This document shows positions 2,798 to 33,649 of a stretch of 64,000 nucleotides of DNA, piece after piece. Position 1 is the stretch's first letter; each line of letters starts with the position of its first letter. This DNA is from a virus (lineage: Duplodnaviria; Heunggongvirae; Uroviricota; Caudoviricetes), in IMG/VR virus record IMGVR_UViG_3300042914_003231, positions 1 to 64,000 of that record; one strand, written 5' to 3'. A program made the position numbers and the translations under genes. A model generated the notes under the pieces. It was not told the DNA's origin and did no database searches. It saw nothing but the letters and a program-made list of their open reading frames with translations.

Positions 2798-2802
2798 CAG
2801 AC

Positions 2803-3027
2803 CTATGTTGATAATTTCTCATTCACTATAGTGATTTTTACCACATCATGGTGATAATGCAACCAGGCTTTTGCCTTCTTAATGTCTTCATCCGTGTGAT
2901 GACTTTCTTTAAATAGCTGGTAAGCACATCCTCCTGGACCTGCTAGATCTTCTCGGTAGAGCATATCATTGATATCTCCACCAGTTGCCCCATTGGGTCT
3001 TAGTTCTTTTAGAGTTAGAGTACTCAT
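2803..3027 (-). CDS. hypothetical protein, 74 aa
   Basis: ORF track. Confidence 0.6.
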   Translation of the reverse strand: MSTLTLKELRPNGATGGDINDMLYREDLAGPGGCAYQLFKESHHTDEDIKKAKAWLHYHHDVVKITIVNEKLST

Positions 3028-3188
3028 TTTGTAGAATTATTATCCACAAAATAAGTATCGGCTTCTTTTCCTACTACCAATTTAAACCTGAATGTACAGG
3101 TCAATATGGCTATTAGGATCAAGAAAGCACATGCCTTAGGATGGCTTTCTATTGCTGCTAGGAATGTTTCCATGCTGAATTCCTCCAT
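3024..3188 (-). CDS. small membrane protein, 54 aa (below the track cut-off)
   Basis: Manual translation: MEEFSMETFLAAIESHPKACAFLILIAILTCTFRFKLVVGKEADTYFVDNNSTK. Start and stop overlap the neighbouring genes (ATGA-type junctions), filling an otherwise empty gap. Confidence 0.4.
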   Translation of the reverse strand: MEEFSMETFLAAIESHPKACAFLILIAILTCTFRFKLVVGKEADTYFVDNNSTK

Positions 3189-3421
3189 TATGTTCTTTTT
3201 TTAATGCCGAACGCTATACCTATTTGTGAGGTATAGATGAATCGGTCTGATTGTTCTGTATCTATGTGTGCCCATGGTGGTACTATCTCCTTAACCAGAG
3301 TATCAAAGTCTGAGGGTTCCATAATAACCAACAGTCTAAGATTCTCTGGCATCGGGGATAGTCTATACACATGATGGGCAAACAATTCGATATCAGCTTG
3401 TGTTTTTAGGTTGTTTTCCAT
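3188..3421 (-). CDS. hypothetical protein, 77 aa
   Basis: ORF track. Confidence 0.6.
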   Translation of the reverse strand: MENNLKTQADIELFAHHVYRLSPMPENLRLLVIMEPSDFDTLVKEIVPPWAHIDTEQSDRFIYTSQIGIAFGIKKRT

Positions 3422-7112: not shown

Positions 7113-7122
7113 ACTAATGGAT

Positions 7123-7153
7123 TGTTTAAATGTTTAATGTTTAAATGTTTAAA
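7123..7153. repeat. tandem TGTTTAA(A) x4, 11-41 nt upstream of the 7112 start codon
   Basis: Read directly: tgtttaaa tgtttaa tgtttaaa tgtttaaa. Confidence 0.9.
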
Positions 7154-7225
7154 TAATAAAGTCACCCAGTAAAAGAACTGATATAGACTATGGTACTGTT
7201 AAAATTAAGGTCAAAGACCTTCCCT

Positions 7226-7671
7226 TGTTATAAAGGCAAAGGTGAAAACCAAGTCTTGTTTATACTATCACAAGGGCCAAGCCTCTACTCTCATAGGGCA
7301 AACAAAGGTCCTCTTAATGTGATAGAGTGATCCAATTATCTCCTTTCGGAGTAACCTGTTCACTGGTTGATACTTTTTATGAAAGCTCAAAAACAATAGG
7401 GGGTTTCACAAGGGAAGCGGTTGATGGGCACACCAGGTACCCGTTTAATTTAACATGATCCAAATTCATGTCTCCATTAGCAGTGGAGTGCTATTTTTCA
7501 GATAGCGAATAATAGTTTATATGTATAGTTCTTTTACCAAGCATAAAGATCTGCAGATATCAGCTTCTGCTTCTTCTACAGATCACCTTTAGGGGAGCTC
7601 TCCCAGCGTCACCTTCCTCACAGGACCGTATGCTTAACACTTAAGTTGGTAGGACTGGTAACAGGAGAGCA
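7226..7671. ncRNA. candidate structured RNA or long leader (ORF-free, GC-enriched)
   Basis: No ORF of 60 aa or more in six frames. Contains a UUUC-looped hairpin CTCC-TTTC-GGAG, long-range pairs ACTATCAC/GTGATAG and GCTCTCC/GGAGAGC, and the palindrome ATCTGCAGAT. No family recognised. Confidence 0.3.
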
Positions 7672-7718
7672 TAATAAAATGTGGGAGGGGCCGGGTCTTC
7701 GAAGCCCCTTTATCCCAC
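7672..7718 (-). terminator. terminator after 7728..8648
   Basis: Two-tier hairpin GTGGGA-GGGGC...GCCCC-TTTA-TCCCAC, followed on the minus strand by ATTTTATTA. Confidence 0.7.
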
Positions 7719-7727
7719 TAGAGTGTA

Positions 7728-11642: not shown

Positions 11643-11858
11643 TTAGTAATTATCAGCCATAGAAGCTAGTATAAGTATTGCACCAATGACTATTAGTATG
11701 ATGGCCAGTGGGAAACATAAGTTCCACCAGCTTAATACAGCTATGGTGACTAGCATAACTCTTGGTTTGATTTCGGTGGCGGTCTCTATATCATATAGAA
11801 TACCTGCTATTATACCTATAAGAGATAGAATAGCAATTGTTAAAATGATCTTGTCCAT
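11643..11858 (-). CDS. small two-TM membrane protein, 71 aa
   Basis: ORF track; almost entirely hydrophobic. Confidence 0.6.
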   Translation of the reverse strand: MDKIILTIAILSLIGIIAGILYDIETATEIKPRVMLVTIAVLSWWNLCFPLAIILIVIGAILILASMADNY

Positions 11859-12171
11859 GGTTTATAGGTTTAAATGGTTATACAATAAGAGCTGAGTCAG
11901 CCTCGGTTAATATCTTTAAAGCTGTGGTGATCCTTTCCTACCTATATAAGGATATAGTAATAGGTATAGATATAGAGATAGTAGTATATAGGGTAATATC
12001 TTTAAGCAAGTAAACCTATTAGGTTTATTAGCTATATGGTGCACGCTCGCCTAAAGGGTGATTGAGGGCTTATTGATCATGGTATCAAAGTGTTGTAGGG
12101 AGTTCACCCCACCTCATGCACACTCTTTTCTTACACATTATCAACTAGTTAGCTGGTTTTTTGTTTGCTTT

Positions 12172-12420
12172 AGACCTGATGAGATCTATTCAACCGGTGT
12201 TATTCTCCCTATATATAGAGATAAGATAACCACCAAGTACTAAACCTGACACAACTATGCGAAGAAATATTCAAAGTGTTTGTCCTATATATAGGGAAAC
12301 ATCTACCAACTATACCATAGACCTGATAAGACTATGCGAAGACTATTTAAAAACACAGTAGATACCAAGAAAAGAAAAAGAAAAGGAACATAGGGATATT
12401 ACTCCCTATATTCCTCTGTC
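12172..12420. repeat. three degenerate tandem modules of about 70-77 bp (starts 12172, 12242, 12319), each with A(G/A)ACCTGA and a CCTATATATAG(G) core
   Basis: Exact 12-mer ACTATGCGAAGA at 12254 and 12331. CCTATATATAG at 12208 and 12284. TAGGGA/TCCCTA hairpin at 12391-12409. Confidence 0.8.
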
Positions 12421-12433
12421 CCCTCTTTATCTC

Positions 12434-12883
12434 CTACATTTTGTCAACACCGCCTTTAACAGCCGCATTCTTTGCTTGCAACTTGGCAATGTTAGCTGAG
12501 CGATTGCTAGCCAATGTGCCTGCAAAACGCTTTAGTTCAGCAAGCTTATCTTGTGCATAAGCTGCTTTGGTAGCCTCATCAGCACCGCTGATTAAGTCGG
12601 CCAATTGCTTCTCTACTGAGTTATCAGTAAACCAGATGATTTCTCCTGAAGCACTTACTGTACGCTCCAATGTTGCCGAAGTACCATACTTAACAGCGGC
12701 TTTTGCTGTGAAGTGGATTAATGGGTTGCCCTCATCGTCCTGACTGTCAATACCTTTAGCCAATTGGTCTTGGCGGTATTGTTCTGCACCCTCGCCAGTT
12801 ACCTTGTAACTAACCATTGGTGTTCCTGTTTCCTTAGCTTTGTAAGGATTTGGGTTGCTGATTGTGATTGTTTTCTTTTCCAT
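12434..12883 (-). CDS. hypothetical protein, 149 aa, GC-richer codon usage
   Basis: ORF track. Codon usage is visibly richer in G/C-ending codons than in neighbouring genes. Confidence 0.7.
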   Translation of the reverse strand: MEKKTITISNPNPYKAKETGTPMVSYKVTGEGAEQYRQDQLAKGIDSQDDEGNPLIHFTAKAAVKYGTSATLERTVSASGEIIWFTDNSVEKQLADLISGADEATKAAYAQDKLAELKRFAGTLASNRSANIAKLQAKNAAVKGGVDKM

Positions 12884-12931
12884 TTTGAGTTGGTTTTTAA
12901 GTTATGACATTATTGTCAAGGTAGTTAATGG

Positions 12932-12963
12932 GATACAAGAGAAAGAAGATACAAGAGAAAGAA
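12932..12963. repeat. tandem 16-mer GATACAAGAGAAAGAA x2, followed by degenerate copies
   Basis: Read directly. Confidence 0.9.
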
Positions 12964-13213
12964 TACACACAGAAGAATGCACACAGGTAGCCATTGCTAT
13001 CCCATGTGCATGTCCATGACAACAAAGAACGATCACCTCAAGTCGAGGCAAATAGACCCATTGATCTTAACCACTGATTTCTTCAGTGATCTGGCCAGTG
13101 TGGTGGCTGAGTCTAATGATGGATATTGTGCTATATATTGTAGCACATGTTTGCTACTAGCCTTATCCCACACTTGTTTAAATACCTGATACATAAGCCT
13201 TTATTTAAGTTAG

Positions 13214-13348
13214 TTAATGTGATACTACAGCCATAACTATGGCCGAGTCAATAACAGCAAGCCAAAGCATTGCTATTATTTTTTTGATTACTGTCCAGTC
13301 CTTTGCATCAGATAATGCAACACCTAGACCTAATGATAGTGTTATCAT
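13214..13348 (-). CDS. small membrane peptide, 44 aa (below the track cut-off)
   Basis: Manual translation: MITLSLGLGVALSDAKDWTVIKKIIAMLWLAVIDSAIVMAVVSH. Confidence 0.35.
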   Translation of the reverse strand: MITLSLGLGVALSDAKDWTVIKKIIAMLWLAVIDSAIVMAVVSH

Positions 13349-13579: not shown

Positions 13580-13606
13580 ATGATGTTGGTTTGTGTTAAA
13601 ATAATG

Positions 13607-13742
13607 ATCAAGTGCTACAGGGTGTACATTCCCTGCTCACTATTCTAGGACTCCCTCTCGTAGGTGTATTAAGTAGTAGCCACGACTGGCCTTACTCCCC
13701 CGAATAGTCTCTCAGGATTTCTCCTGTCTTGAGCACTTGATC
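13607..13742. other. structured module A: 11-bp perfect inverted repeat closing about 114 nt
   Basis: GATCAAGTGCT (13607-13617) pairs with AGCACTTGATC (13732-13742). Confidence 0.6.
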
Positions 13743-13937
13743 AATCAAGTTGATGGGATAAAGAAGAAAGAATAGAGTAAGGTGATGAGTGGATCTCTCC
13801 ACTCGCGGCCTTATATAGTTTGTCGTTGCCCTACACATGCAACTATTAAGTATGCAGGGATCGTCCTTGGTTGGCTACATGCTCAAGGATGCATGGATGA
13901 CATGATACCATCTCATCAATCAAGTTCATGGGATAAA
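13741..13937. repeat. 22-mer direct repeat TCAATCAAGTT(G/C)ATGGGATAAA, one copy after each structured module
   Basis: 13741-13762 and 13916-13937 differ by one mismatch and are 175 bp apart. Confidence 0.85.
13783..13918. other. structured module B: inverted repeat TGATGAG(T)GG / CC(AT)CTCATCA
   Basis: 13783-13792 pairs with 13908-13918. An internal hairpin GAGTGGA-tctc-TCCACTC lies at 13787-13804. Confidence 0.5.
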
Positions 13938-14012
13938 AAAAGACAGAACTTTTTCTCCAAGGAAAAAAGTTTCTTACCAGGCTGAATTAGGAAAATGTTT
14001 TTTTCAGACCCT

Positions 14013-14058
14013 GGGGGTAGGGGGTACTATGAAACACGGGGGGAGGTTGTTGGGGAGG
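14013..14058 (+). other. G-run cluster (possible G-quadruplex)
   Basis: GGGGG ta GGGGG ... GGGGGG a GG ... GGGG a GG, within an otherwise AT-rich genome. Confidence 0.4.
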
Positions 14059-14146
14059 ACCCAATCCACAAACACTATTATGTAAAATACCCACCCCGGG
14101 ATATTATATTCTATTGATCAGGTATTGCTTATCTTAGAATTTGAGT

Positions 14147-15079: not shown

Positions 15080-15151
15080 GGACTCATAGCTCAGTAGGTA
15101 GAGCGCAGGACTGAAAATCCTGCCGCACTGGTTCGATTCCAGTTGAGTCCA
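15080..15151 (+). tRNA. tRNA-Phe (GAA)
   Basis: Acceptor GGACTCA/TGAGTCC; D GCTC/GAGC; anticodon arm CAGGA-CTGAAAA-TCCTG; T arm ACTGG-TTCGATT-CCAGT. Confidence 0.92.
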
Positions 15152-15156
15152 CACAA

Positions 15157-15239
15157 GCCGACACTGTAGAGTGGGAGATCTACACCAGACTGTAAATCTG
15201 GAGTCTTAGACTTTGGGAGTTCGAATCTCTCTGGCGGCA
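15157..15239 (+). tRNA. tRNA-Tyr (GTA), long variable arm
   Basis: Acceptor GCCGACA/TGGCGGC (one mismatch); arm CCAGA-CTGTAAA-TCTGG; T arm GGGAG-TTCGAAT-CTCTC. Confidence 0.85.
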
Positions 15240-15244
15240 CAAAA

Positions 15245-15330
15245 GGAAGGTTGGCAGAGCCTGGCCGATTGCACCAGTCTTGAAAACTGGAGGTCCCTTG
15301 GATCCGTGAGTTCGAATCTCACACCTTCCT
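15245..15330 (+). tRNA. tRNA-Ser (TGA)
   Basis: Acceptor GGAAGGT/ACCTTCC; arm CCAGT-CTTGAAA-ACTGG; long variable arm; T arm GTGAG-TTCGAAT-CTCAC. Confidence 0.9.
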
Positions 15331-15390
15331 CAACATGCATAGAAAAATGCACTTTTCTATACATGTTTTTTGAAAGTGCATAAAAACTAT

Positions 15391-15431
15391 ACATCTCTAG
15401 CTCAACTGGCGGAGCAGCGGTCTCCAAAACC
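15391..15431 (+). pseudogene. truncated tRNA-Trp-like 5' portion (acceptor 5' strand to anticodon loop only)
   Basis: D arm GCTC-AACTGGCG-GAGC and loop CTCCAAA. Shares the 13-mer GGTCTCCAAAACC with the intact tRNA-Trp (15419-15431 versus 15834-15846). No T arm and no 3' acceptor complement. Confidence 0.6.
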
Positions 15432-15464
15432 ATAAAGCAGTTTGGATACTGAAGTAAAAACATG

Positions 15465-15472
15465 TATATTTG
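15465..15472 (+). promoter_or_regulatory. -7 box TATATTTG, 3 nt before ATG 15476
   Basis: Matches TAnnTTTG. Confidence 0.45.
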
Positions 15473-15475
15473 TAC

Positions 15476-15817
15476 ATGCCTTCAAAAAATAAAGAAATAC
15501 TAAAAAAGCATAGAGATGCTTGGTATAAAAAGAATAAAAAAAAACAGATTACTAACCAGCTTGAAAAAAGACAGGAATTAAAGAAATGGTTTCAGGAATA
15601 TAAGAGATCATTATCTTGTAAAGAGTGTGGATTTAGCTTTGAATTATTTCCAGAATGTTGTGATTTCCATCACAGAGATGGAGATACAAAGAAAGATGTA
15701 GTAAGCAGATTGCTACCAATGGGAATAAAAGCACTAAAGAAAGAGATTGAAAAATGTGATCCTCTTTGTGCTAATTGTCATAGAAAGCTCCATGCAAAAT
15801 TAGAATATACAGGTTAG
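15476..15817 (+). CDS. HNH homing endonuclease (free-standing, inside the tRNA array)
   Basis: CKECG...CCDFHHRDGDTKKD...CDPLCANCHRKLH is an HNH/zinc-finger motif. The stop codon lies inside the tRNA-Trp 5' end. Confidence 0.8.
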   Translation: MPSKNKEILKKHRDAWYKKNKKKQITNQLEKRQELKKWFQEYKRSLSCKECGFSFELFPECCDFHHRDGDTKKDVVSRLLPMGIKALKKEIEKCDPLCANCHRKLHAKLEYTG

Positions 15818-15880
15818 CTTATTGGAAGCACCAGGTCTCCAAAACCTCGGATGGAAGGAGTTCGATTCTCTTAACCTGTG
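15809..15880 (+). tRNA. tRNA-Trp (CCA)
   Basis: Acceptor ACAGGTT/AACCTGT; D GCTT/AAGC; loop CTCCAAA; T arm AGGAG-TTCGATT-CTCTT. Confidence 0.85.
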
Positions 15881-15885
15881 CACAA

Positions 15886-15957
15886 GGTACCGTGGGTGAG
15901 GGGTTTAGCCTCAGGTCTGCAAAACCTGCTACGTCTGTTCGAATCAGACCGGTACCT
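15886..15957 (+). tRNA. tRNA-Cys (GCA)
   Basis: Acceptor GGTACCG/CGGTACC; arm CAGGT-CTGCAAA-ACCTG; T arm GTCTG-TTCGAAT-CAGAC. Confidence 0.92.
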
Positions 15958-15958
15958 C

Positions 15959-16174
15959 ATGAAAGAGATAGATGAAGAGTTCAACTTACTTCAGTTGTAC
16001 ATCTATGATTGCATCAACCGGATGTGTTTGAATGCATACATAGATAAGACTAAGTGTTCTCATCACCCTTTGTATACTTTTGAAGAATACAAAACGGCAA
16101 TATGGGATCCTTGGACTGGAGAGACTGTAGCAAGTAGAACAAGATGGGCTTTAAATATTAAGCCTTTATTTTAG
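15959..16174 (+). CDS. hypothetical protein, 71 aa, flush between tRNA-Cys and tRNA-Ser
   Basis: The ATG lies 2 nt after the tRNA-Cys discriminator. The stop TAG (16172-16174) overlaps the tRNA-Ser start (16173). The track ORF 15878.. was trimmed to the first ATG outside the tRNA. Confidence 0.5.
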   Translation: MKEIDEEFNLLQLYIYDCINRMCLNAYIDKTKCSHHPLYTFEEYKTAIWDPWTGETVASRTRWALNIKPLF

Positions 16175-16257
16175 AGAAGTGGCTGAGTGGCTTAAGGCAC
16201 CGCACTGCTAACGCGGAGGATGTAACAGTTCCACCGGTTCGAATCCGGTCTTCTCTG
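16173..16257 (+). tRNA. tRNA-Ser (GCT)
   Basis: Acceptor AGAGAAG/CTTCTCT; loop CTGCTAA; long variable arm; T arm ACCGG-TTCGAAT-CCGGT. Confidence 0.88.
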
Positions 16258-16262
16258 CAAAT

Positions 16263-16343
16263 GCCCATATGGTGGAATGGTAGACGCGCTGGTCTTAGGA
16301 ACCAGTACCGTAAGGTATGTAGGTTCGAGTCCTACTATGGGTA
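16263..16343 (+). tRNA. tRNA-Leu (TAG)
   Basis: Acceptor GCCCATA/TATGGGT; arm CTGGT-CTTAGGA-ACCAG; long variable arm; T arm GTAGG-TTCGAGT-CCTAC. Confidence 0.9.
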
Positions 16344-16348
16344 CATAT

Positions 16349-16431
16349 ACTCCTGTGGTGTAATTGGTAGCCGCGCTAGGCTTAAGACTCAGTGGACTTA
16401 GTCCGTGCCGGTTCGAGTCCGGCCAGGAGTA
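16349..16431 (+). tRNA. tRNA-Leu (TAA)
   Basis: Acceptor ACTCCTG/CAGGAGT; loop CTTAAGA (weak anticodon stem); variable stem GGACT/AGTCC; T arm GCCGG-TTCGAGT-CCGGC. Confidence 0.8.
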
Positions 16432-16474
16432 CTTTGCTCACCTGATTAATAAAGTGACCAAAAATTATTACACT

Positions 16475-16520
16475 GTCTACCAATCAGTTAGACCTTCTGA
16501 AGAAAATATTTTTGGTAGAC
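16475..16520 (+). other. 9-bp stem-loop at the end of tRNA block 1
   Basis: GTCTACCAA (16475-16483) pairs with TTGGTAGAC (16512-16520). The 3' arm overlaps the -33 TTTG of the next promoter. Confidence 0.5.
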
Positions 16521-16542
16521 TCAAACAAACCTATTATATTTG
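16511..16542 (+). promoter_or_regulatory. promoter: TTTG (-33) N20 TATATTTG (-7)
   Basis: TTTG at 16511-16514 and TATATTTG at 16535-16542. Confidence 0.6.
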
Positions 16543-16550
16543 TCTTGCAA

Positions 16551-16652
16551 ATGAAACGCATACAACATATCCAGATGGCCAATACAGGCAGAAATACGGT
16601 GGAGATTAAAGATCCGACCGTGTCCATGGGTGTTGCATGTAGTTTTAGATAA
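16551..16652 (+). CDS. leader ORF 2, 33 codons: MKRIQHIQMANTGRNTVEIKDPTVSMGVACSFR
   Basis: ATG lies 8 nt after the -7 box. Residues 2-24 use only the 14 amino acids served by the 16 downstream tRNAs, and all 14 occur. A terminator follows 28 nt after the stop. Confidence 0.5.
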   Translation: MKRIQHIQMANTGRNTVEIKDPTVSMGVACSFR

Positions 16653-16680
16653 GACATTTTTAGTTAGCTAAACCGCATTA

Positions 16681-16710
16681 AACCCCTGGACAAGTTCTAG
16701 GGGTTTTTTG
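16681..16710 (+). terminator. intrinsic terminator immediately before tRNA-Pro
   Basis: Stem (AA)CCCCTGG/CTAGGGG(TT) with a 7-nt loop and T6. Confidence 0.8.
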
Positions 16711-16718
16711 TTTTACCC

Positions 16719-16791
16719 CGGGATGTAGATCAGTTGGTAGATTGCGTGCTTTGGGAGCATGAGGTCGCAGGTTCGAGCCCTGTCATCCCGA
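16719..16791 (+). tRNA. tRNA-Pro (TGG)
   Basis: Acceptor CGGGATG/CATCCCG; arm CGTGC-TTTGGGA-GCATG; T arm GCAGG-TTCGAGC-CCTGT. Confidence 0.9.
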
Positions 16792-16847
16792 CTAGCAGAA
16801 GTGGTACTCCAGTGCCCGTACTGAAAACCAAACAAAACTGGAGACAT

Positions 16848-16920
16848 GGGGTTCAAGCACAAGCGGACGTGCATTAGCTTTGCAAGCTAGAGGATCTCGG
16901 TTCGAGGCCGAGGAGCTCCA
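16848..16920 (+). tRNA. tRNA-Ala (TGC)
   Basis: Acceptor GGGGTTC/GAGCTCC with a G3:U70 pair; D GCAC/GTGC; arm TTAGC-TTTGCAA-GCTAG; T arm CTCGG-TTCGAGG-CCGAG. Confidence 0.88.
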
Positions 16921-16921
16921 C

Positions 16922-17083
16922 ATGAATGAAGAACTATATAATTGGCTGGAGAAGATGTTTATGTTCTCCAATATCCCTAAGTACAGGAAGTACTTTAAGG
17001 AATGGGTGGACAACATAACTGAAGATCAGATCACCGGTTTTCAGAGAATGATGGGAGCCAACTATAAGATTAAGCAGGAATAG
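16922..17083 (+). CDS. hypothetical protein, 53 aa, flush between tRNA-Ala and tRNA-Gly
   Basis: The ATG lies 2 nt after the tRNA-Ala discriminator. The stop TAG (17081-17083) lies inside tRNA-Gly, which starts at 17074. Confidence 0.5.
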   Translation: MNEELYNWLEKMFMFSNIPKYRKYFKEWVDNITEDQITGFQRMMGANYKIKQE

Positions 17084-17148
17084 CTCATCCTTGGTAGAGC
17101 TCCAGTCTTCCAAACTGGAGGTGGCGAGTTCGAGCCTCGCTTCCTGCT
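17074..17148 (+). tRNA. tRNA-Gly (TCC)
   Basis: Acceptor GCAGGAA/TTCCTGC; arm CCAGT-CTTCCAA-ACTGG; T arm GCGAG-TTCGAGC-CTCGC. Confidence 0.92.
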
Positions 17149-17331
17149 CACAACTGCAGTGCCCATGTACAGTGGGGGTACAATCACTGCAGGTAGAAGA
17201 GTGCTAAGAAATCCGGTGTTGGGTTAGCTCTGGACACTAAGGTAAGGAGTGGGTAAGGACCACAGTCCCCGTCTAACAGGGACAAAGTTTTGCAAAAGCC
17301 TTCCCTGGGATGGAGCACTCTTCATGATATT
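17149..17331 (+). ncRNA. structured non-tRNA spacer RNA (unknown family)
   Basis: 8-bp hairpin CTGCAGTG/CACTGCAG (17154-17192). 10-bp long-range helix GAAGAGTGCT (17196-17205) with AGCACTCTTC (17314-17323). Inner hairpin GTCCC...GGGAC. GC-enriched; no cloverleaf. Confidence 0.4.
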
Positions 17332-17407
17332 GGTCTGTTAGGGGAGTCCGGCCGTCCCTACCTCACTGTCTATGAGGGGATCACGGGTTCGAATCCCGTA
17401 CAGACCG
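17332..17407 (+). tRNA. tRNA-Asp (GTC)
   Basis: Acceptor GGTCTGT/ACAGACC; arm CCTCA-CTGTCTA-TGAGG; T arm ACGGG-TTCGAAT-CCCGT. Position 37 is an unusual T. Confidence 0.78.
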
Positions 17408-17518
17408 CTGGGCGGTAGTCTAATGAGCAGGGTTAGTAGCGTGCTGACTAACTAGTCTTAGGACGATCATCTTATGGGATGATAGATATCAGTAACCATT
17501 CTGATCTGCCCCACCAAT
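17408..17518 (+). ncRNA. second structured non-tRNA spacer (unknown)
   Basis: Hairpins ATCATC-ttatgg-GATGAT and ATCAG-taaccatt-CTGAT; ends ...CTGCCCCACCA; repeated TAGTCT(A/T)A. Confidence 0.3.
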
Positions 17519-17590
17519 TGCCCCTTAGCTCAGCGGTAGAGCAAAACCCTGTTAAGGTTGAGGTCCTAGGTTCAATCCCTAGAGGGGCAG
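17519..17590 (+). tRNA. tRNA-Asn (GTT)
   Basis: Acceptor TGCCCCT/AGGGGCA; loop CTGTTAA; T arm CTAGG-TTCAATC-CCTAG. Confidence 0.9.
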
Positions 17591-17595
17591 CAAAT

Positions 17596-17670
17596 AGACG
17601 AGTAGCTCAGCCTGGTTAGAGCGCCCGCCTGATACGCGGAGGGTCACAGGTTCAAATCCTGTCTTGTCTA
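17596..17670 (+). tRNA. tRNA-Ile (GAT)
   Basis: Acceptor AGACGAG/CTTGTCT; loop CTGATAC; T arm ACAGG-TTCAAAT-CCTGT. Confidence 0.88.
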
Positions 17671-17727
17671 CTTTGGGACCGTTTGGTAGTGACATAGTCT
17701 TGAACTAGATCATAGAAACTATCACAT

Positions 17728-17800
17728 AGGAGTATAGCTCAGTTGGGAGAGCATCCGGTTTACATCCGGACGGTCCAAGGTTCGAGTCCTTGTATTCCTA
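17728..17800 (+). tRNA. tRNA-Val (TAC)
   Basis: Acceptor AGGAGTA/TATTCCT; arm TCCGG-TTTACAT-CCGGA; T arm CAAGG-TTCGAGT-CCTTG. Confidence 0.9.
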
Positions 17801-17884
17801 CAAACTTTAAAGATTTAAACTTATAATGTTTACACTATTAAAATATAAGGTTATAAAGAGAAGGATAAAACCTTAACTCATTAT

Positions 17885-17956
17885 TCCCTCATAGCTTAGT
17901 GGTAAAGCAGTATACTTTTAATATACGGAGCGGCAGTTCGATTCTGCCTGGGGGAA
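17885..17956 (+). tRNA. tRNA-Lys (TTT)
   Basis: Acceptor TCCCTCA/TGGGGGA; arm GTATA-CTTTTAA-TATAC; T arm GGCAG-TTCGATT-CTGCC. Confidence 0.9.
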
Positions 17957-17962
17957 CTTTAA

Positions 17963-18034
17963 ACCCCCGTAGCTCAATGGAAGAGTAAGAGACTTCTAAG
18001 CTCAAGGTTACCAGTTCGAGTCTGGTCGGGGGTT
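17963..18034 (+). tRNA. tRNA-Arg (TCT)
   Basis: Acceptor ACCCCCG/CGGGGGT; loop CTTCTAA (short GAG/CTC stem); T arm ACCAG-TTCGAGT-CTGGT. Confidence 0.82.
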
Positions 18035-18040
18035 CTGAAT

Positions 18041-18114
18041 AGGCCCTTAGCTCAGTTGGTTAGAGCAGTACTCTTATAAGGTAAAGGTCACCGGTTCAAA
18101 CCCGGTAGGGCCTA
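18041..18114 (+). tRNA. tRNA-Ile (TAT), reads ATA
   Basis: Acceptor AGGCCCT/AGGGCCT; loop CTTATAA; T arm ACCGG-TTCAAAC-CCGGT. Confidence 0.85.
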
Positions 18115-18124
18115 CATAATATTT

Positions 18125-18199
18125 AGCGGGGTGACTGGAGTTGGTTCCAGCACAGCCTCATAAACTGTACAGACGCGGGTTCGAGTCCCGCCCCCGCTA
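18125..18199 (+). tRNA. tRNA-Met (CAT), elongator-like
   Basis: Acceptor AGCGGGG/CCCCGCT; loop CTCATAA; T arm GCGGG-TTCGAGT-CCCGC. No 3xG:C initiator signature in the anticodon stem. Confidence 0.85.
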
Positions 18200-18265
18200 C
18201 AATGAGTGCTAATGACACCTGATAAAGGAGGGGATATATTACCAGGTCCCCCGACACTCAGTAAC

Positions 18266-18337
18266 GCTCCCATCATCTAGGGGTCAGGATATCAGGTTTT
18301 CGACCTGAGCACCAGGGTTCGAATCCCTGTGGGAGTA
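18266..18337 (+). tRNA. tRNA-Glu (TTC)
   Basis: Acceptor GCTCCCA/TGGGAGT; arm TCAGG-TTTTCGA-CCTGA; T arm CAGGG-TTCGAAT-CCCTG. Confidence 0.9.
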
Positions 18338-18342
18338 CTTAA

Positions 18343-18415
18343 GCTTGAGTAGCACAATTGGTAGTGCACCTCCCTTGTAAGGAGAAGGTTGTCAGTTCGA
18401 GTCTGACCTCAAGCT
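18343..18415 (+). tRNA. tRNA-Thr (TGT)
   Basis: Acceptor GCTTGAG/CTCAAGC; D GCAC/GTGC; loop CTTGTAA; T arm GTCAG-TTCGAGT-CTGAC. Confidence 0.9.
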
Positions 18416-18417
18416 CT

Positions 18418-18491
18418 GTGTCTGTAGAGGAATTGGTAGACTCCCCGGAATGTGGATCCGGTGCTTGTGGGTTCAAGTCCCATCAGACACC
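18418..18491 (+). tRNA. tRNA-His (GTG)
   Basis: Acceptor GTGTCTG/CAGACAC; arm CCGGA-ATGTGGA-TCCGG; T arm GTGGG-TTCAAGT-CCCAT. The only tRNA followed by an encoded CCA. Base -1 is T, not G. Confidence 0.88.
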
Positions 18492-18497
18492 CCATTA

Positions 18498-18571
18498 GTT
18501 CTCATAGCTCAATTGGATAGAGTCCTTGACTACGGATCAAGAGGTTGAAGGTTCGACTCCTTCTGAGAACA
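18498..18571 (+). tRNA. tRNA-Arg (ACG)
   Basis: Acceptor GTTCTCA/TGAGAAC; arm CTTGA-CTACGGA-TCAAG; T arm GAAGG-TTCGACT-CCTTC. Confidence 0.92.
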
Positions 18572-18576
18572 CATAA

Positions 18577-18647
18577 TGCCCTTTCGTCTAACGGCAGGAC
18601 CTGTGGTTTTGGGCCACATGATCGAGGTTCGAATCCTTGAGGGGCAA
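18577..18647 (+). tRNA. tRNA-Gln (TTG)
   Basis: Acceptor TGCCCTT/AGGGGCA; arm TGTGG-TTTTGGG-CCACA; T arm CGAGG-TTCGAAT-CCTTG. Followed by a T-run. Confidence 0.9.
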
Positions 18648-18680
18648 CTAGTTTTTTATTGTTTGCACATCCAAAGTTTT

Positions 18681-31232: not shown

Positions 31233-31442
31233 ATGGATGCATTATATGACTGGTTGTTTCATTACAACCCACACACAAAATCATGGGCAGCTTTTAGAAG
31301 AGAGCACATGCAAAATTACTTTAATGGTGATCATGAGAATGTAGTAAAAAGCAAGTCTCAAAAAACTTTAGAAGAGCTTATCATTTCTAATGAGGGAGAT
31401 CTTGAAAGAATTCATAAATTTGTAAGTAAGCTAAAAAGCTAA
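31233..31442 (+). CDS. hypothetical protein, 69 aa
   Basis: ORF track. Confidence 0.55.
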   Translation: MDALYDWLFHYNPHTKSWAAFRREHMQNYFNGDHENVVKSKSQKTLEELIISNEGDLERIHKFVSKLKS

Positions 31443-33649
31443 TGAATTCTTTTTTCTATACTGACATACCTACCTGGGATAATGGTGAATGGAAAACCAC
31501 CAGCTTTGGCAGCCATGAAGATTTTCGGGTCTTCATAAAAAGTGTGTTCAAAGAACCCGGTAAGTATGAGTTTGATGAGACTTCAAAACTATTTAATGCT
31601 GAGGCCACTAAGTGGAATCAACAAAAGTTTTATTGTGCTGCCCCTAGGAATACTAAGGACTACATTCTTTATTGGGATGATCAAAAAGCTAAGTGTAGAA
31701 AAGGAGTTATTTTCACCCAGAAAGGAAAGACTTGGTTTCTCCCGCGCGAGTACTACATGTGGTTGAATTTCCTACCTATCAACAACAAAGAGAAAAGATT
31801 ATTTTCTTTCCCGGATATAAGAGATGCTCAGTATCACATGGCCTTGTATAATCTATTGGCTGAGTTATTCTACAAGCATTCTGCTATCCTTAAAAAACGT
31901 CAGATAGCCTCTTCTTACTATCATGCCGCCAAACTAATCAACTACTTATGGTTTGAAGAAACTCCTATCTTAAAAATGGGAGCTTCTCTAAAAGCTTATG
32001 TATTGGATACCTGGAGATTTGTAGTAGAGTACAAGAACTTTTTGGATGAACACACAGCATGGTACCGTGATATGAATCCTAAAAAACCTTTGGATTGGCA
32101 GCAACAAGTTGAGACTGAGATTCCAGGTACCACCAGAAAGATCTTAAAAGGTTTAAAGGGAGTTCTTAAAGGAACTTCTTTTGAACAAGAACCTACGGCA
32201 GGTGTAGGTGGACCTTGTACCTACTTCTTCCATGAAGAAGCTGGTGTAGCTCCTGATATGATGGAGACTTTTGGTTACATGAAACCCGCCTTAAAATCAG
32301 GTATGATCACAACTGGTACATTTATTGCTGCAGGATCTGTAGGTGACTTAGATCAGTGTGAGCCATTACGCGAGATGATCATGAGACCCGATGCCAATGA
32401 TATTTATCCTGTAACCACTAATCTTCTTGATGATAGAGGTACAGTTGGTGAATCAGGTCTTTTTATTCCTGAGCAATGGTCGATGCCTCCTTGTATAGAT
32501 GAGTTTGGAAACTCACTTGTAGAGGATGCATTAAAAATGCTGGATGATTACTTTGCCGATCTTAAGAAAAAGCTTTCTCCAGAATCATACCAGTTAGAAG
32601 TATCTCAGCATCCGCGTAACATTGAAGAAGCTTTTGCAGCCAGAACTGTTTCAATATTCCCTACTCACTTGGTTGCTTCTCAAAAGAGAAGAATCTTGGA
32701 TAAAGAATATAGCATAGAGTATGTAGATCTTGCAAGAGGAGTTGATGGTAAATGGTTGGTGGATAAATCTAAGAAAATACCTATTTCAGAGTTCCCTGTT
32801 AGCAAAGCCACAGAAGATAAAACAGGAGTAATTTGTGTATATGAAAGACCTGATCCTAAAGCTGAGTGGGGTACATACTATGCTTCTATTGACCCGGTCG
32901 CTCAAGGTAAGACAAATACTTCAGAATCTCTATGCTCTATTTATGTTTACAAAATTCCTATTGAAGTAACAAGAATCGATGGTGAAGAAGTGAAAACTTA
33001 CATAGAAGAGGATAAGATTGTTTGTTCTTGGACTGGCCGATTTGATGATATAAACAAAACCTACAAGAGACTAGAAGATATCATTGAGTGGTACAATGCA
33101 TGGACTTTAATAGAAAACAACGTACCTGGTTTCATCACCTACATGATCAGTAAGAGAAAACAAAAGTATCTGGTACCAAAAAGTCAGGTAACCTTCCGTA
33201 AAGATGTGGAGTATGTGCAACATGGTCCAGAAGAATATGGTTGGAGAAACACCGGTACTCTTTTCAAGACTTACATCCTACCTTACCTGGTAGACTATTG
33301 TAAAGAAGAAATAGATGTTATCAAAAAACAGGACAGCGAAGATATTGTAAAGATCAAGTATGGTATTGAGAGGATTCCGGATATCATGGCCATGAAAGAA
33401 ATGGAGATGTATAGAGAAGGGTTGAACGTTGACCGCTTGACAGCTCTGGGAGCTTTAATTGCTTTTGCTAAAGTGCAGGAAGCTAACAGAGGTATACGAA
33501 AAAGGATAGACCGGACAACAGATAAGAAACAGTTGCAAAAGTCAGAAAAAATCAGTACATTTACTAATAGTCCCTTTAGACATATTGGAATGAATAACGG
33601 GTCATCAGGAAAAAGACCTCCTAGAAACCCTTTTAAAAATATACGATGA
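31442..33649 (+). CDS. terL: terminase large subunit, 735 aa
   Basis: Walker-B-like TYFFHEEAG; NIEEAFAAR; nuclease motifs YYASIDPVAQGK and TLIENNVPG; precedes the portal gene. The classical GxxxxGK[ST] P-loop is not obvious (candidates KKRQIASS and QKGKT). Confidence 0.82.
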   Translation: MNSFFYTDIPTWDNGEWKTTSFGSHEDFRVFIKSVFKEPGKYEFDETSKLFNAEATKWNQQKFYCAAPRNTKDYILYWDDQKAKCRKGVIFTQKGKTWFLPREYYMWLNFLPINNKEKRLFSFPDIRDAQYHMALYNLLAELFYKHSAILKKRQIASSYYHAAKLINYLWFEETPILKMGASLKAYVLDTWRFVVEYKNFLDEHTAWYRDMNPKKPLDWQQQVETEIPGTTRKILKGLKGVLKGTSFEQEPTAGVGGPCTYFFHEEAGVAPDMMETFGYMKPALKSGMITTGTFIAAGSVGDLDQCEPLREMIMRPDANDIYPVTTNLLDDRGTVGESGLFIPEQWSMPPCIDEFGNSLVEDALKMLDDYFADLKKKLSPESYQLEVSQHPRNIEEAFAARTVSIFPTHLVASQKRRILDKEYSIEYVDLARGVDGKWLVDKSKKIPISEFPVSKATEDKTGVICVYERPDPKAEWGTYYASIDPVAQGKTNTSESLCSIYVYKIPIEVTRIDGEEVKTYIEEDKIVCSWTGRFDDINKTYKRLEDIIEWYNAWTLIENNVPGFITYMISKRKQKYLVPKSQVTFRKDVEYVQHGPEEYGWRNTGTLFKTYILPYLVDYCKEEIDVIKKQDSEDIVKIKYGIERIPDIMAMKEMEMYREGLNVDRLTALGALIAFAKVQEANRGIRKRIDRTTDKKQLQKSEKISTFTNSPFRHIGMNNGSSGKRPPRNPFKNIR

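Follow-up and report, generated by a model that had tools for sequence, protein, structure and literature searches.

The gene-free gap and its neighbors

The 575-bp gap at positions 11859-12433 of the analysed DNA (the "window", that is, the whole stretch of 64,000 nucleotides) lies among genes that are encoded throughout on the minus strand, and the gene callers accept no ORF inside it, which bears out its designation as non-coding in the sequence-only reading that preceded this analysis. The source phage is a distant, uncultured crAss-like phage; searching by DNA or by single protein brought up no near relatives among GenBank phages and IMG/VR. The gap is a single-copy conserved control region, acting at the level of DNA, at the end of the immediate-early (first-expressed) gene cluster. 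Following the minus strand, one passes from the terminator of a 149-aa gene through two full and one truncated copies of an oriented box, alternating with (TA)4-centred palindromes, and after the boxes through an inverted repeat, a GC cluster with ATATAGCTA, a G-poor TA-rich tract and a conserved block that stands just before the next gene (Table 1). The region's motifs are unique in the 64-kb window, with one occurrence per locus.

Table 1. Elements of the gap and its borders, listed in the direction of the minus strand
Element	Positions	Strand	Description
Promoter-like 20-mer	12916-12935	-	TATCCCATTAACTACCTTGA; upstream of the 149-aa gene; more copies at 13741-13760 and 13916-13935
149-aa gene	12434-12883	-	Last gene of the immediate-early cluster; always directly upstream of the region
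Intrinsic terminator of the 149-aa gene	12361-12417	-	15-bp stem at 12382-12417, then U-rich tail ending in the TTGGTATC box
Box C	12318-12342	-	TCTTCGCATAGTCTTATCAGGTCTA; full copy; relatives-only profile E = 0.0029
Palindrome 1	12276-12303		GATGTTTCCCTATATATAGGACAAACAC; (TA)4-centred; one side pyrimidine-rich, the other purine-rich
Box B	12241-12265	-	TCTTCGCATAGTTGTGTCAGGTTTA; full copy; relatives-only profile E = 0.0016
Palindrome 2	12196-12231		GGTTATCTTATCTCTATATATAGGGAGAATAACACC; 36-bp imperfect palindrome, (TA)4-centred
Box A	12171-12193	-	TTGAATAGATCTCATCAGGTCTA; truncated, without the TTC half; relatives-only profile E = 0.47
Accessory motif	12136-12156		CCAGCTAACTAGTTGATAATG; inverted-orientation copy of the relatives' GATAATCAAGTAGTTA
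P1 imperfect inverted repeat	12081-12129		Encloses the conserved (C)TAAC/CAACC motif
GC-rich cluster, then ATATAGCTA	12028-12050	-	One occurrence in the window
RGCTA hairpin	12005-12033	-	AGCTAATAAACC/GGTTTACTTGCT; starts at the R of ATAT|RGCTA; -7.9 kcal/mol, z = -2.1
G-poor TA-rich simple tract	11937-11993	-	(TAY)n / TATTAC-like hexamers; Tandem Repeats Finder period 6
Conserved block	11905-11938	-	GGAAAGGATCACCACAGCTTTAAAGATATTAACC; relatives read TAGAGAGAATCCGCAACTTTGAAATTA
Small hairpin	11889-11904	-	GAGGCTGACTCAGCTC; between the conserved block and the next start codon; -5.4 kcal/mol, z = -1.6
71-aa hydrophobic ORF	11643-11858	-	First possible gene after the region; not conserved in relatives

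For the 149-aa protein 54 homologues were found, with synteny kept in all fetched loci; its AF2 model has a pLDDT of 91, and it has no Pfam or PHROG hit, no fold neighbor and no similarity to any initiator or DNA-binding fold. The 71-aa ORF on the other side is not called as a gene in an identical Logan contig and shows no similarity to the 71-aa gene of one relative, L003. (Another note on neighbors: L005 and L017, which are closely related relatives, have a RepL-family gene beside the locus. RepL was considered as the initiator and set aside: it is confined to these two and is absent from the window.)

That all local genes run on the minus strand governs how the elements are to be read: what had been described as modules are oriented boxes, and the TAGGGA/TCCCTA hairpin, assigned earlier to the end of the third module, is there (12390-12408) but lies within the stem of the minus-strand intrinsic terminator of the neighboring gene. 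This terminator was found by a terminator scan and consists of a G+C-containing stem-loop and a U-run directly after the stop codon, on the coding strand; its RNA fold has an energy of -26.4 kcal/mol (z = -3.9). An equivalent hairpin and T-run are present 3' of the homologous gene in nearly all relatives, the most distant pair, L028/L029, being without an evident one.

The promoter-like 20-mer of the immediate-early cluster, TATCCCATyAAyTrrCTTrA, places the region at a boundary. Of its 49 distinct copies, 47 are found at the 149-aa gene or upstream of it, and no gene beyond the region is preceded by one, so that the regime changes exactly here: on one side is the immediate-early cluster with a repeated promoter-like motif of its own, on the other the genes that come next, and the region marks the boundary.

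Boxes and palindromes

The boxes have the 23-bp consensus TTC-N9-TATCAGGTYTA, and 11 of the 23 positions of their matrix are well conserved. They begin where the sequence-only reading had its modules begin (AGACCTGAT at 12172, AAACCTGAC at 12242 and AGACCTGAT again at 12319), with the third box (12171-12193) truncated; the exact repeat ACTATGCGAAGA was also found at 12254 and 12331, boxes B and C having this 12-mer in common and the units being most alike within the window. The picture of even, ~76-bp tandem modules with evenly phased sites does not survive: successive boxes start 77 and 70 bp apart here and 40-127 bp apart in relatives, Tandem Repeats Finder calls no ~76-bp tandem repeat, and the units are ~60% alike outside the boxes.

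The repeats exceed chance. When a box profile is built from relatives alone, with the window excluded, the three boxes are its top three matches on both strands of the 64 kb, all of them on the minus strand. The 25-mer TCTTCGCATAGT-N4-TCAGGTYTA has two matches where 0.00 are expected, and CCCTATATATAG, allowing one mismatch at most, has five where 0.39 are expected, four of the five falling inside the region. Scanning a genome collection for the box gave single matches at chance level. (A CRISPR-like mini-array, which would have identical repeats of 24-37 nt and spacers of one length, or solitary repeat units of anti-CRISPR type, was also considered and rejected on the intervals of 40-127 bp, the conservation of 11/23 positions and the occurrence of a hairpin in one clade only.)

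Between the boxes, CCTATATATAG occurs at 12208 and 12284, as had been claimed, with the qualification that the perfect 12-bp palindrome CCTATATATAGG belongs to the second copy only, the first reading CCTATATATAGA. An element of the palindrome-1 type follows the boxes in at least 12 relatives.

From the accessory motif to the next gene

The accessory motif GATAATCAAGTAGTTA occurs in either orientation among relatives, and once as an inverted pair (L019). The sequence ATAT(A/G)GC, at the junction of the GC cluster and the RGCTA hairpin, is the most invariant of the entire region and is present in every aligned relative that reaches this point; in the hairpin itself the pairing in relatives is AGCTA..TAGCT or GGCTA..TAGCC, which amounts to one compensatory change.

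Repeats do lie at 11941-11992, where "TATAG-type" repeats had been noted; they are TA-rich, and their identity is that of a G-poor (TAY)n tract. This part of the region is conserved more widely; what relatives keep is its property and not its sequence: 73% A+T (only ~10 points above the window average of ~63%) and 11.6% G, with autocorrelation peaks at lags of 2, 3, 6 and 12. The 3-nt periodicity, together with TGA/TAA in the conserved block, raised the suspicion of a small ORF over the tract; frames ending in the conserved block run to 6-44 codons, most of them with no start codon, and the idea was dropped. The 12-mer TAATATCTTTAA is repeated at 11908 and 11994, in agreement with the earlier claim. 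The conserved block is a single copy per locus, at constant place and on constant strand; it is a candidate for the promoter or leader of the gene that follows. The small hairpin has counterparts at the equivalent place in L007, L008 and L034.

Conservation among relatives

In ~25 distinct relatives the homologous gene always precedes a gene-free stretch, 350-1300 bp long, and the order of elements is kept even at 50-60% protein identity. The homologous regions (14.65 kb) hold 47 boxes in gene orientation and none in reverse, an enrichment of ~45-fold; in the other 180 kb of fetched sequence the counts are 13 forward and seven reverse. Box-bearing relatives carry one to three, and most relatives two or three, all in gene orientation. 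With two full copies and one truncated, the window has the direct repeats (~17-23 bp, three at least, all facing one way) expected of an iteron origin; their conservation, which the sequence-only reading had made a test of itself, is borne out. Several clades (L004, L021, L024/L031, L026/L027, L029) nevertheless lack the CAGGTYTA box and keep the core.

The upstream half of the box varies in concert within each genome, being TCTTCNCATAGT, GTTCCCTA or a GC hairpin, as is expected of sites that co-evolve with a genome-encoded binding protein. In the last case, that of one clade, the box consists of a hairpin followed by ATAACAGGTYTA; its 4-5 bp stem shows compensatory changes (GCCCC/GGGGC, GCCCT/AGGGC, GACCC/GGGTC), and a single G-U pair occurs when the gene strand is read.

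A probable site for proteins

What kind of site is this? Rfam, at gathering and E-value thresholds, returned only tRNAs and noise from the window and 12 relatives; RNAalifold gives 0 pairs on 24 aligned cores; folding z values, taken over the whole region and over the P1 zone, stay close to zero and show no strand preference (P1 mean -1.10 sense and -1.04 antisense, the window's own value being -1.4). Neither a σ70 (TTGACA/TATAAT) nor a Bacteroidetes (TTTG/TAnnTTTG) promoter was found inside the modules by consensus scan, inspection or box matrix. DnaA boxes (TTATCCACA, ≤1 mismatch) are absent from the window's region and occur as scattered single sites in relatives; L026 has one isolated perfect DnaA box. 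The lack of an RNA family, consensus structure, strand-specific fold, small ORF, DnaA box or standard promoter points to DNA-level sites, and boxes that are conserved, oriented, confined to a single locus and variable in copy number, with no RNA signal, fit an array of protein-binding sites. Judged on these patterns, the region is most likely a protein-binding control site: a replication origin and/or a transcription switch.

The sequence-only reading had proposed an iteron-type origin or an array of operator or activator sites. A repeated array of putative protein-binding sites in functional non-coding DNA is what stands of it; the phasing does not, and neither an initiator gene nor a DnaA box goes with the region. 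The two proposals remain the leading explanations, and computation cannot separate them.

An origin of replication?

It is tentatively proposed that the region is the phage's origin of replication, with the boxes as protein-bound iterons and the TA elements opening the duplex. The boxes would then be binding sites for a phage-encoded sequence-specific protein, and strand opening would take place at the TA palindromes and the G-poor, TA-rich tract. With a strong terminator ahead of it, the region probably contains the downstream operon's promoter as well, and it may itself be transcribed. Such a combination has precedents: transcription activates some phage origins, including the T7 primary origin and the origin of lactococcal phage c2.

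Counted in favor of the origin, besides the conservation of the region and its oriented, unique boxes, are the putatively meltable (TA)4 palindromes and G-poor, 73% A+T tract, the RepL-family gene beside the locus in L005/L017, and the setting: GC skew is flat and near zero from 9.5 to 14 kb of the 64-kb window, a zone that includes the region and adjoins a strand switch at 13.6-14.1 kb, with the proviso that skew is confounded here by gene orientation, the coding strand being G-rich on both sides. Counted against it are the irregular box spacing, unlike that of tightly phased iterons, and the clades that lack the CAGGTYTA box while retaining the core. The window has no initiator (Rep) gene linked to the region and no replication gene within 13 kb on the same strand. 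Since a promoter must exist in the gap regardless, transcription alone could explain much of the conservation.

Comparison with known origins cuts both ways. The iteron origins (λ ori, P1 oriR, SPP1 oriL, the lactococcal phage ori/"per") resemble the region in occupying a unique non-coding or early locus, with several ~20-bp direct repeats facing one way and varying copy number, and their easily melted A+T-rich DNA has a putative counterpart adjacent to the boxes; they differ in that the region's spacing is long and irregular (40-127 bp) instead of one to two helical turns, no initiator gene is recognisable next to it, some relatives have no boxes, and the region is only a candidate origin. 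The T7 primary origin, φ1.1A/φ1.1B with its A+T-rich region, likewise consists of two co-oriented, promoter-sized units, ~75 bp from each other and standing where the second temporal class of genes begins, with an A+T-rich tract after them, but its units are bona fide T7 RNA polymerase promoters while the boxes are only candidate promoters. (A technical note: palindrome 2 contains TATAGGGAGA, which looks like a T7 promoter. It was rejected as such, there being no further copy in the 64 kb; crAss-like phages have, to our knowledge, no T7-type polymerase.)

The prototypic crAssphage, Carjivirus communis, has two predicted origins near a strand switch, with near-zero skew between them; the predictions came from OriFinder and read coverage, and the sites lie beside repL and a toxin-antitoxin pair (PMC10983915). 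The region shares with them its place near a strand switch in a zone of near-zero skew, and in L005/L017 also a neighboring RepL; the window has neither repL nor toxin-antitoxin genes, and the likeness is one of position, with no sequence relationship claimed.

A transcription switch?

Somewhat more doubtful, although possible, is that the boxes set transcription going again past the terminator, acting as a tandem row of promoters specific to the phage, as operators or as activator sites; they would drive a long untranslated leader and a ~12-kb downstream operon, and so mark the transition from immediate-early genes to the next temporal class. With a strong terminator upstream, the next genes need a promoter; the 20-mer regime changes exactly at the region; every box points along gene direction; boxes of the window's clade have TCCCAT and TATC in common with the 20-mer; and L026/L027 carry a copy of CCATTAACTGT at the place that boxes take in other clades. 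Tandem strong early promoters are, moreover, a known design (T7 A1-A3, N4 P1-P3), with two or three co-oriented units 60-130 bp apart near the start of the early region, much as here, and the N4 virion-polymerase promoters have a short hairpin per unit, as do the boxes of one clade.

There are objections. The boxes match no known promoter consensus, fitting neither σ70 nor Bacteroidetes (-33 TTTG / -7 TAnnTTTG), with only a weak TAnnnT tendency after the 8-mer (T in 24 of 45 copies). They lie 270-420 bp upstream of the next gene, and neither they nor the conserved block are repeated before any other gene in the 64 kb. Their likeness to the 20-mer extends to just 4-6 bases, and clades with GTTCCCTA or the GC hairpin do not show it; the early-type motif that the family does have (TATCCCAT...) differs from the box in sequence, and the box hairpin is clade-specific. 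Finally, a switch leaves the TA palindromes and the G-poor tract unexplained.

A parallel comes from the crAss-like phage φ14:2, in which two long stretches between early-block genes give more transcript than most genes do, and this from the earliest time point on; the same study saw no motif shared upstream of the early transcripts (Drobysheva et al., bioRxiv 10.1101/2020.03.07.982082). These, too, are long gaps without genes, oriented as the genes are, with a small hydrophobic ORF next in line. They differ in having no detectable sequence similarity to the region and in that one of the two is tmRNA-like, with nothing of the sort found here; moreover, their transcription has been seen, that of the region being a possibility.

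A non-coding RNA, or another kind of site?

The φ14:2 precedent invites another thought, that the region is a non-coding RNA gene whose abundant early product carries the repeated CAGGUYUA as RNA, for instance to titrate a host or defence protein as a decoy or sponge does; the early lncRNA of φ14:2, itself unexplained, would be its counterpart. We consider such an RNA gene distinctly unlikely. Its position resembles φ14:2 g004-g005 in the early-block gap and the small hydrophobic ORF that follows, the repeats keep strictly to a single orientation, the box hairpin of one clade has compensatory changes and a G-U pair, and the RGCTA hairpin adds one compensatory change of its own. Set against these are the absence of Rfam matches and RNAalifold pairs already described, a whole-region folding z of -0.56 sense versus -1.03 antisense (the sense strand being more stable in only 10 of 17), the symmetry of the P1 zone between strands, and the accessory motif, whose presence in both orientations argues for DNA. 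Homology to the φ14:2 lncRNA region was looked for and discarded: nhmmer detects none, and the sharing of the 10-11-mers CAAGTAGTTA and GAAAGAGGGTG, striking at first sight, is at chance level, 518 10-mers being shared in 9 kb.

Other unique cis-acting sites fare worse. Single-copy elements made of repeated, oriented boxes in variable number are also typical of pac and par sites, and the region has just these properties, but packaging (pac) or recognition by terminase, partition (in the manner of a centromere) or recombination is very unlikely to be its function: 19 kb separate it from the terminase genes, ParA/ParB, integrase and recombinase genes were not seen in its neighborhood, and relatives' contigs show no clustering of their ends in it. 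That the repeats have no function and are a recent local duplication in junk DNA, with which the exact 12-mer of boxes B and C and the high likeness within the window are compatible, is hardly credible and effectively refuted, since the same elements persist in the same order and orientation at 50-70% flanking-protein identity, at which neutral intergenic DNA would be unrecognisable.

What the region may mean for crAss-like phages

Few phages known are as abundant as the crAss-like ones. We know of no origin in this group that is more than predicted, and of no definition of the promoters of its injected RNA polymerase. Environmental relatives of the phage analysed here offer short, sharply conserved elements whose arrangement is fixed: every immediate-early gene is preceded by a copy of the 20-mer, and a unique array of oriented boxes, TA palindromes and a GC-AT transition closes the cluster. 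The boxes and TA palindromes could be recognition sites for a transcription or replication machinery of the crAss type, such as a second class of virion-RNA-polymerase promoters that fires a transcription-primed origin at the immediate-early boundary; this is unlikely. If it is true, they and the TATCCCATyAAyT motif would be the first sequence-defined early promoters and origin of a crAss-like lineage. If the region is instead an ordinary promoter or leader, it would still be a useful annotation of a conserved regulatory boundary.

Oriented boxes and a terminator

Both ORFs that flank the gene-free region 11859-12433 are encoded by the minus strand, and the region must therefore be read on that strand. 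The repeats previously listed in a sequence-only reading are all found at their assigned positions and far exceed chance expectation, but the ~76-bp modules into which they had been grouped are not upheld. The proposed module start, A(G/A)ACCTGA(T/C), is the 3' end of a minus-strand box (TCTTCGCATAGT-N4-TCAGGTYTA); the spacing of the boxes, thought to be even, measures 77 and 70 bp; and the TAGGGA/TCCCTA hairpin that had been assigned to the third module is the stem of an intrinsic terminator just past the stop codon of the 149-aa gene (15-bp stem with a U-rich tail; -26.4 kcal/mol, z = -3.9 by RNA folding).

Positions of features in the window
Feature	Position	Strand	Remarks
Minus-strand gaps	2798-3420; 7113-7727		~620 bp each; no ORFs of at least 100 aa
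71-aa hydrophobic ORF	11643-11858	minus	flanks the region
Conserved block	11905-11938	minus	one copy
P1	12081-12129		imperfect inverted repeat
Box A	12171-12193	minus	truncated copy
(TA)4-centred palindromes	12196-12231; 12276-12303		interleaved with boxes
Box B	12241-12265	minus	full copy
Box C	12318-12342	minus	full copy
149-aa gene	12434-12883	minus	flanks the region
Early-type 20-mer	12916-12935; 13741-13760; 13916-13935	minus	
Early-type 20-mer, weaker copy	13205-13224	minus	
Divergent junction	13600-14140		~540 bp
tRNA genes	15080-18648	plus	24 genes
Large terminase gene	31442-33649		
Portal gene	34280-37048		

Anatomy of the region in relatives

Metagenomic protein space yielded 54 homologues of the 149-aa protein (45-100% identity), none with an informative name or Pfam domain. 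This one protein family is the source of all the relatives considered here: 45 fetched loci (L001-L032, L034-L046), one of them (L001) identical to the window and the others, sampled from freshwater, sediment and further environments, constituting ~25 distinct versions. A stretch devoid of called genes follows the homologue in every locus (353 bp in L004, 672 bp in L002, 696 bp in L003, ~710 bp in L037, 766 bp in L005 and 1030-1310 bp in the L041-L045 group); the gene that lies beyond it varies.

Read along the gene strand, this stretch opens with the terminator hairpin and T-run, which almost every relative has (L028/L029, the most distant pair, show no evident one); in most clades one to three boxes follow. 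In a matrix of 45 distinct instances the box has TTC at -15 to -13, TAT at -3 to -1, then an invariant CAGG and a nearly invariant TYTA; its upstream half differs by clade and is uniform inside one genome, taking the form of TCTTCNCATAGT, GTTCCCTA, GTTCCCACAG or a GC hairpin of 4-5 bp that shows compensatory changes. Many boxes are followed by a (TA)3-5 core between a pyrimidine-rich and a purine-rich side, with arm complementarity that is weak outside the inner 2-4 bp. Next come an accessory motif, GATAATCAAGTAGTTA, in either orientation (once as an inverted pair); P1, which surrounds a (C)TAAC/CAACC motif; a GC cluster of 6-9 bp and then ATAT(A/G)GC, invariant in 24/24 aligned sequences; a short hairpin starting at the A/G of that motif and pairing AGCTA/TAGCT or GGCTA/TAGCC in relatives; a TA-rich, G-poor simple tract (73% A+T, 11.6% G) with hexamer periodicity; and the conserved block (TAGAGAGAATCCGCAACTTTGAAATTA), a single copy per locus in constant place and strand. 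Beyond it lies the next gene or, in the L041-L045 group, 500-800 further gene-free bases. (A small ORF across the TA-rich tract was tested and ruled out.)

Conservation, which the sequence-only reading had named as a check, extends to the boxes in most clades, but five (L004, L021, L024/L031, L026/L027 and L029) lack the CAGGTYTA box while retaining everything from P1 through the conserved block; L024/L031 have two copies of GGCCAGTAG in its place. In L020 (1918-2448; also in L022) a 176-aa HNH_3/NUMOD4 homing-endonuclease ORF, absent from the close relatives L021 and L016, is inserted between terminator and conserved core; the stretch upstream of the core therefore tolerates insertions. Four other loci (L041, L042, L044 and L045) are nearly identical to one another up to the conserved block and then differ by whole cassettes: their variable stretch (500-800 nt, ~600-1300 nt past the 146-aa gene) is G+C-richer, gene-free and full of hairpins, yields no Rfam match, and may be a modular non-coding RNA region.

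Specificity of the elements

The post-terminator regions (14.65 kb) contain 47 forward and no reverse copies of CAGGTYTA, a count that overstates independent observations because many loci are near-identical (~8-10 clades are independent); the other fetched sequence (180 kb) holds 13 forward and 7 reverse copies. A profile of 40 box instances from relatives, the window excluded, ranks the window's three boxes as the top three on both strands of its 64 kb (the E-values depend on a shortened calibration), and the region's motifs do not recur elsewhere in the window. Given this orientation bias, ranking and lack of recurrence, the elements belong to a single locus rather than to a general class of promoter. 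(A genome-wide box scan gave single matches at chance level except in five contigs, L050, L054, L075, L114 and L119, of one Bacteroidales MAG, Tannerellaceae JAITRG01; these have in common a ~190-nt repeat containing GTTCCCGGGCCGGTATCAGGTTTA, probably a multi-copy element whose resemblance to the box is coincidental.)

The phage and its immediate-early boundary

The terminase and portal genes mark the window as phage DNA. The phage is a distant, uncultured member of the crAss-like group, because its terminase shares only ~24% identity with Crassvirales terminases (among them those of Bacteroides crAss-like phages, Flavobacterium FPSV and Cellulophaga phi14:2) and the locus has no counterpart among GenBank phages at the DNA or protein level. 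Genes run on the minus strand left of ~13.6 kb and on the plus strand right of ~14.1 kb, where the tRNA genes diverge from the early block; L002, L003 and L034 likewise carry tRNAs ahead of their early genes on the other strand. The divergent junction has no convincing ORF, a higher G+C content, several hairpin-like inverted repeats and two early-type motif copies.

A sharply conserved, promoter-like 20-mer, TATCCCATyAAyTrrCTTrA, follows a pyrimidine tract (TTTCTCTTGTATC twice, before the 149-aa gene). Almost all relatives have it in front of the 149-aa gene, and each of the small genes that separate this gene from the strand switch is preceded by it too. Behind the copy that precedes the 149-aa gene comes a hairpin with a compensatory change (TTGACA..TGTCAA vs TTGGCA..TGCCAA). 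Forty-seven of 49 distinct instances (L002-L046) fall at the 149-aa gene or upstream of it; 0 of the 49 lie ahead of genes downstream of the non-coding region, and the 11.8 kb of minus-strand window genes that follow have none. Because the distribution of the 20-mer stops there, the 149-aa gene closes the immediate-early cluster, and region 11859-12433 is the boundary to the next unit. This crAss-like lineage may use the 20-mer as its early promoter; in phi14:2 the early promoters yielded no shared motif (bioRxiv 10.1101/2020.03.07.982082).

The same preprint reports that, already at the earliest time point, two long intergenic regions in the early block of phi14:2 are more highly transcribed than most genes. 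Of the two "long non-coding RNAs" reported for this phage, the one at the g005-g006 junction (L033, NC_021806, 4031-4502, plus strand) aligns end to end with the tmRNA model RF00023 (46 bits, gathering score 47; E = 1.4e-16) and is probably a phage tmRNA.

Origin, switch or RNA?

The sequence-only reading had offered an iteron-type origin or a repressor/activator array, and it is partly supported: that class of explanation is right, its phasing, hairpin and module boundaries are not. Tentatively, a replication origin, possibly transcribed, fits best, because the locus is unique, its boxes are iteron-like and vary together within one genome, and TA palindromes, a GC/AT transition and an AT-rich, G-poor tract lie close to the strand switch. 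GC skew is about zero across about 9.5-14 kb, with negative values left of this zone and positive values right of it, and is confounded with gene orientation; in prototypic crAssphage two origins are predicted near the strand switch beside repL, with near-zero skew between (PMC10983915). Only one clade, L005/L017, has a RepL-family gene adjoining the locus (PF05732, 28.4 bits vs a cutoff of 20.3; L005 3241-3690, locus minus strand), immediately upstream of the 145-aa homologue and on the opposite strand. The other matched minus-strand genes of the window (HD hydrolase, OmpA-like, SPFH and PcfJ-like proteins) include no replication gene.

Almost as good, and partly compatible with an origin, is a possible transcription switch. 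The boxes would then serve as phage-specific promoters or operators in tandem, and the downstream operon would have its promoter or leader in the conserved block; a promoter must necessarily be somewhere in this gap.

A function at the RNA level is unlikely, the structure tests having come out negative. The window region and 12 relatives match no Rfam family. RNAalifold predicts zero pairs for 24 aligned cores, which, MAFFT alignments of such divergent non-coding DNA being imperfect, speaks against a strong common structure and is no proof of absence. Mean MFE z-scores of 17 whole regions are -0.56 (sense) and -1.03 (antisense), the sense strand being the more stable in only 10/17; those of the P1 zone are -1.10 and -1.04. 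Some local hairpins do show one or two compensatory changes (one clade's box hairpin; the RGCTA hairpin); they are short and could equally form in single-stranded DNA. The accessory motif's occurrence in both orientations points to the DNA level, as do the conservation of sequence while spacing varies and the likeness of the box halves inside each genome. A packaging or partition site is more doubtful still, gene context giving no support, and chance, excluded by conservation, hardly deserves consideration as the origin of the repeats.

The function of the region is what we infer; the array itself, in which oriented boxes and meltable TA elements stand at a regulatory boundary, occur at this locus only and are under selection at the DNA level, is established.
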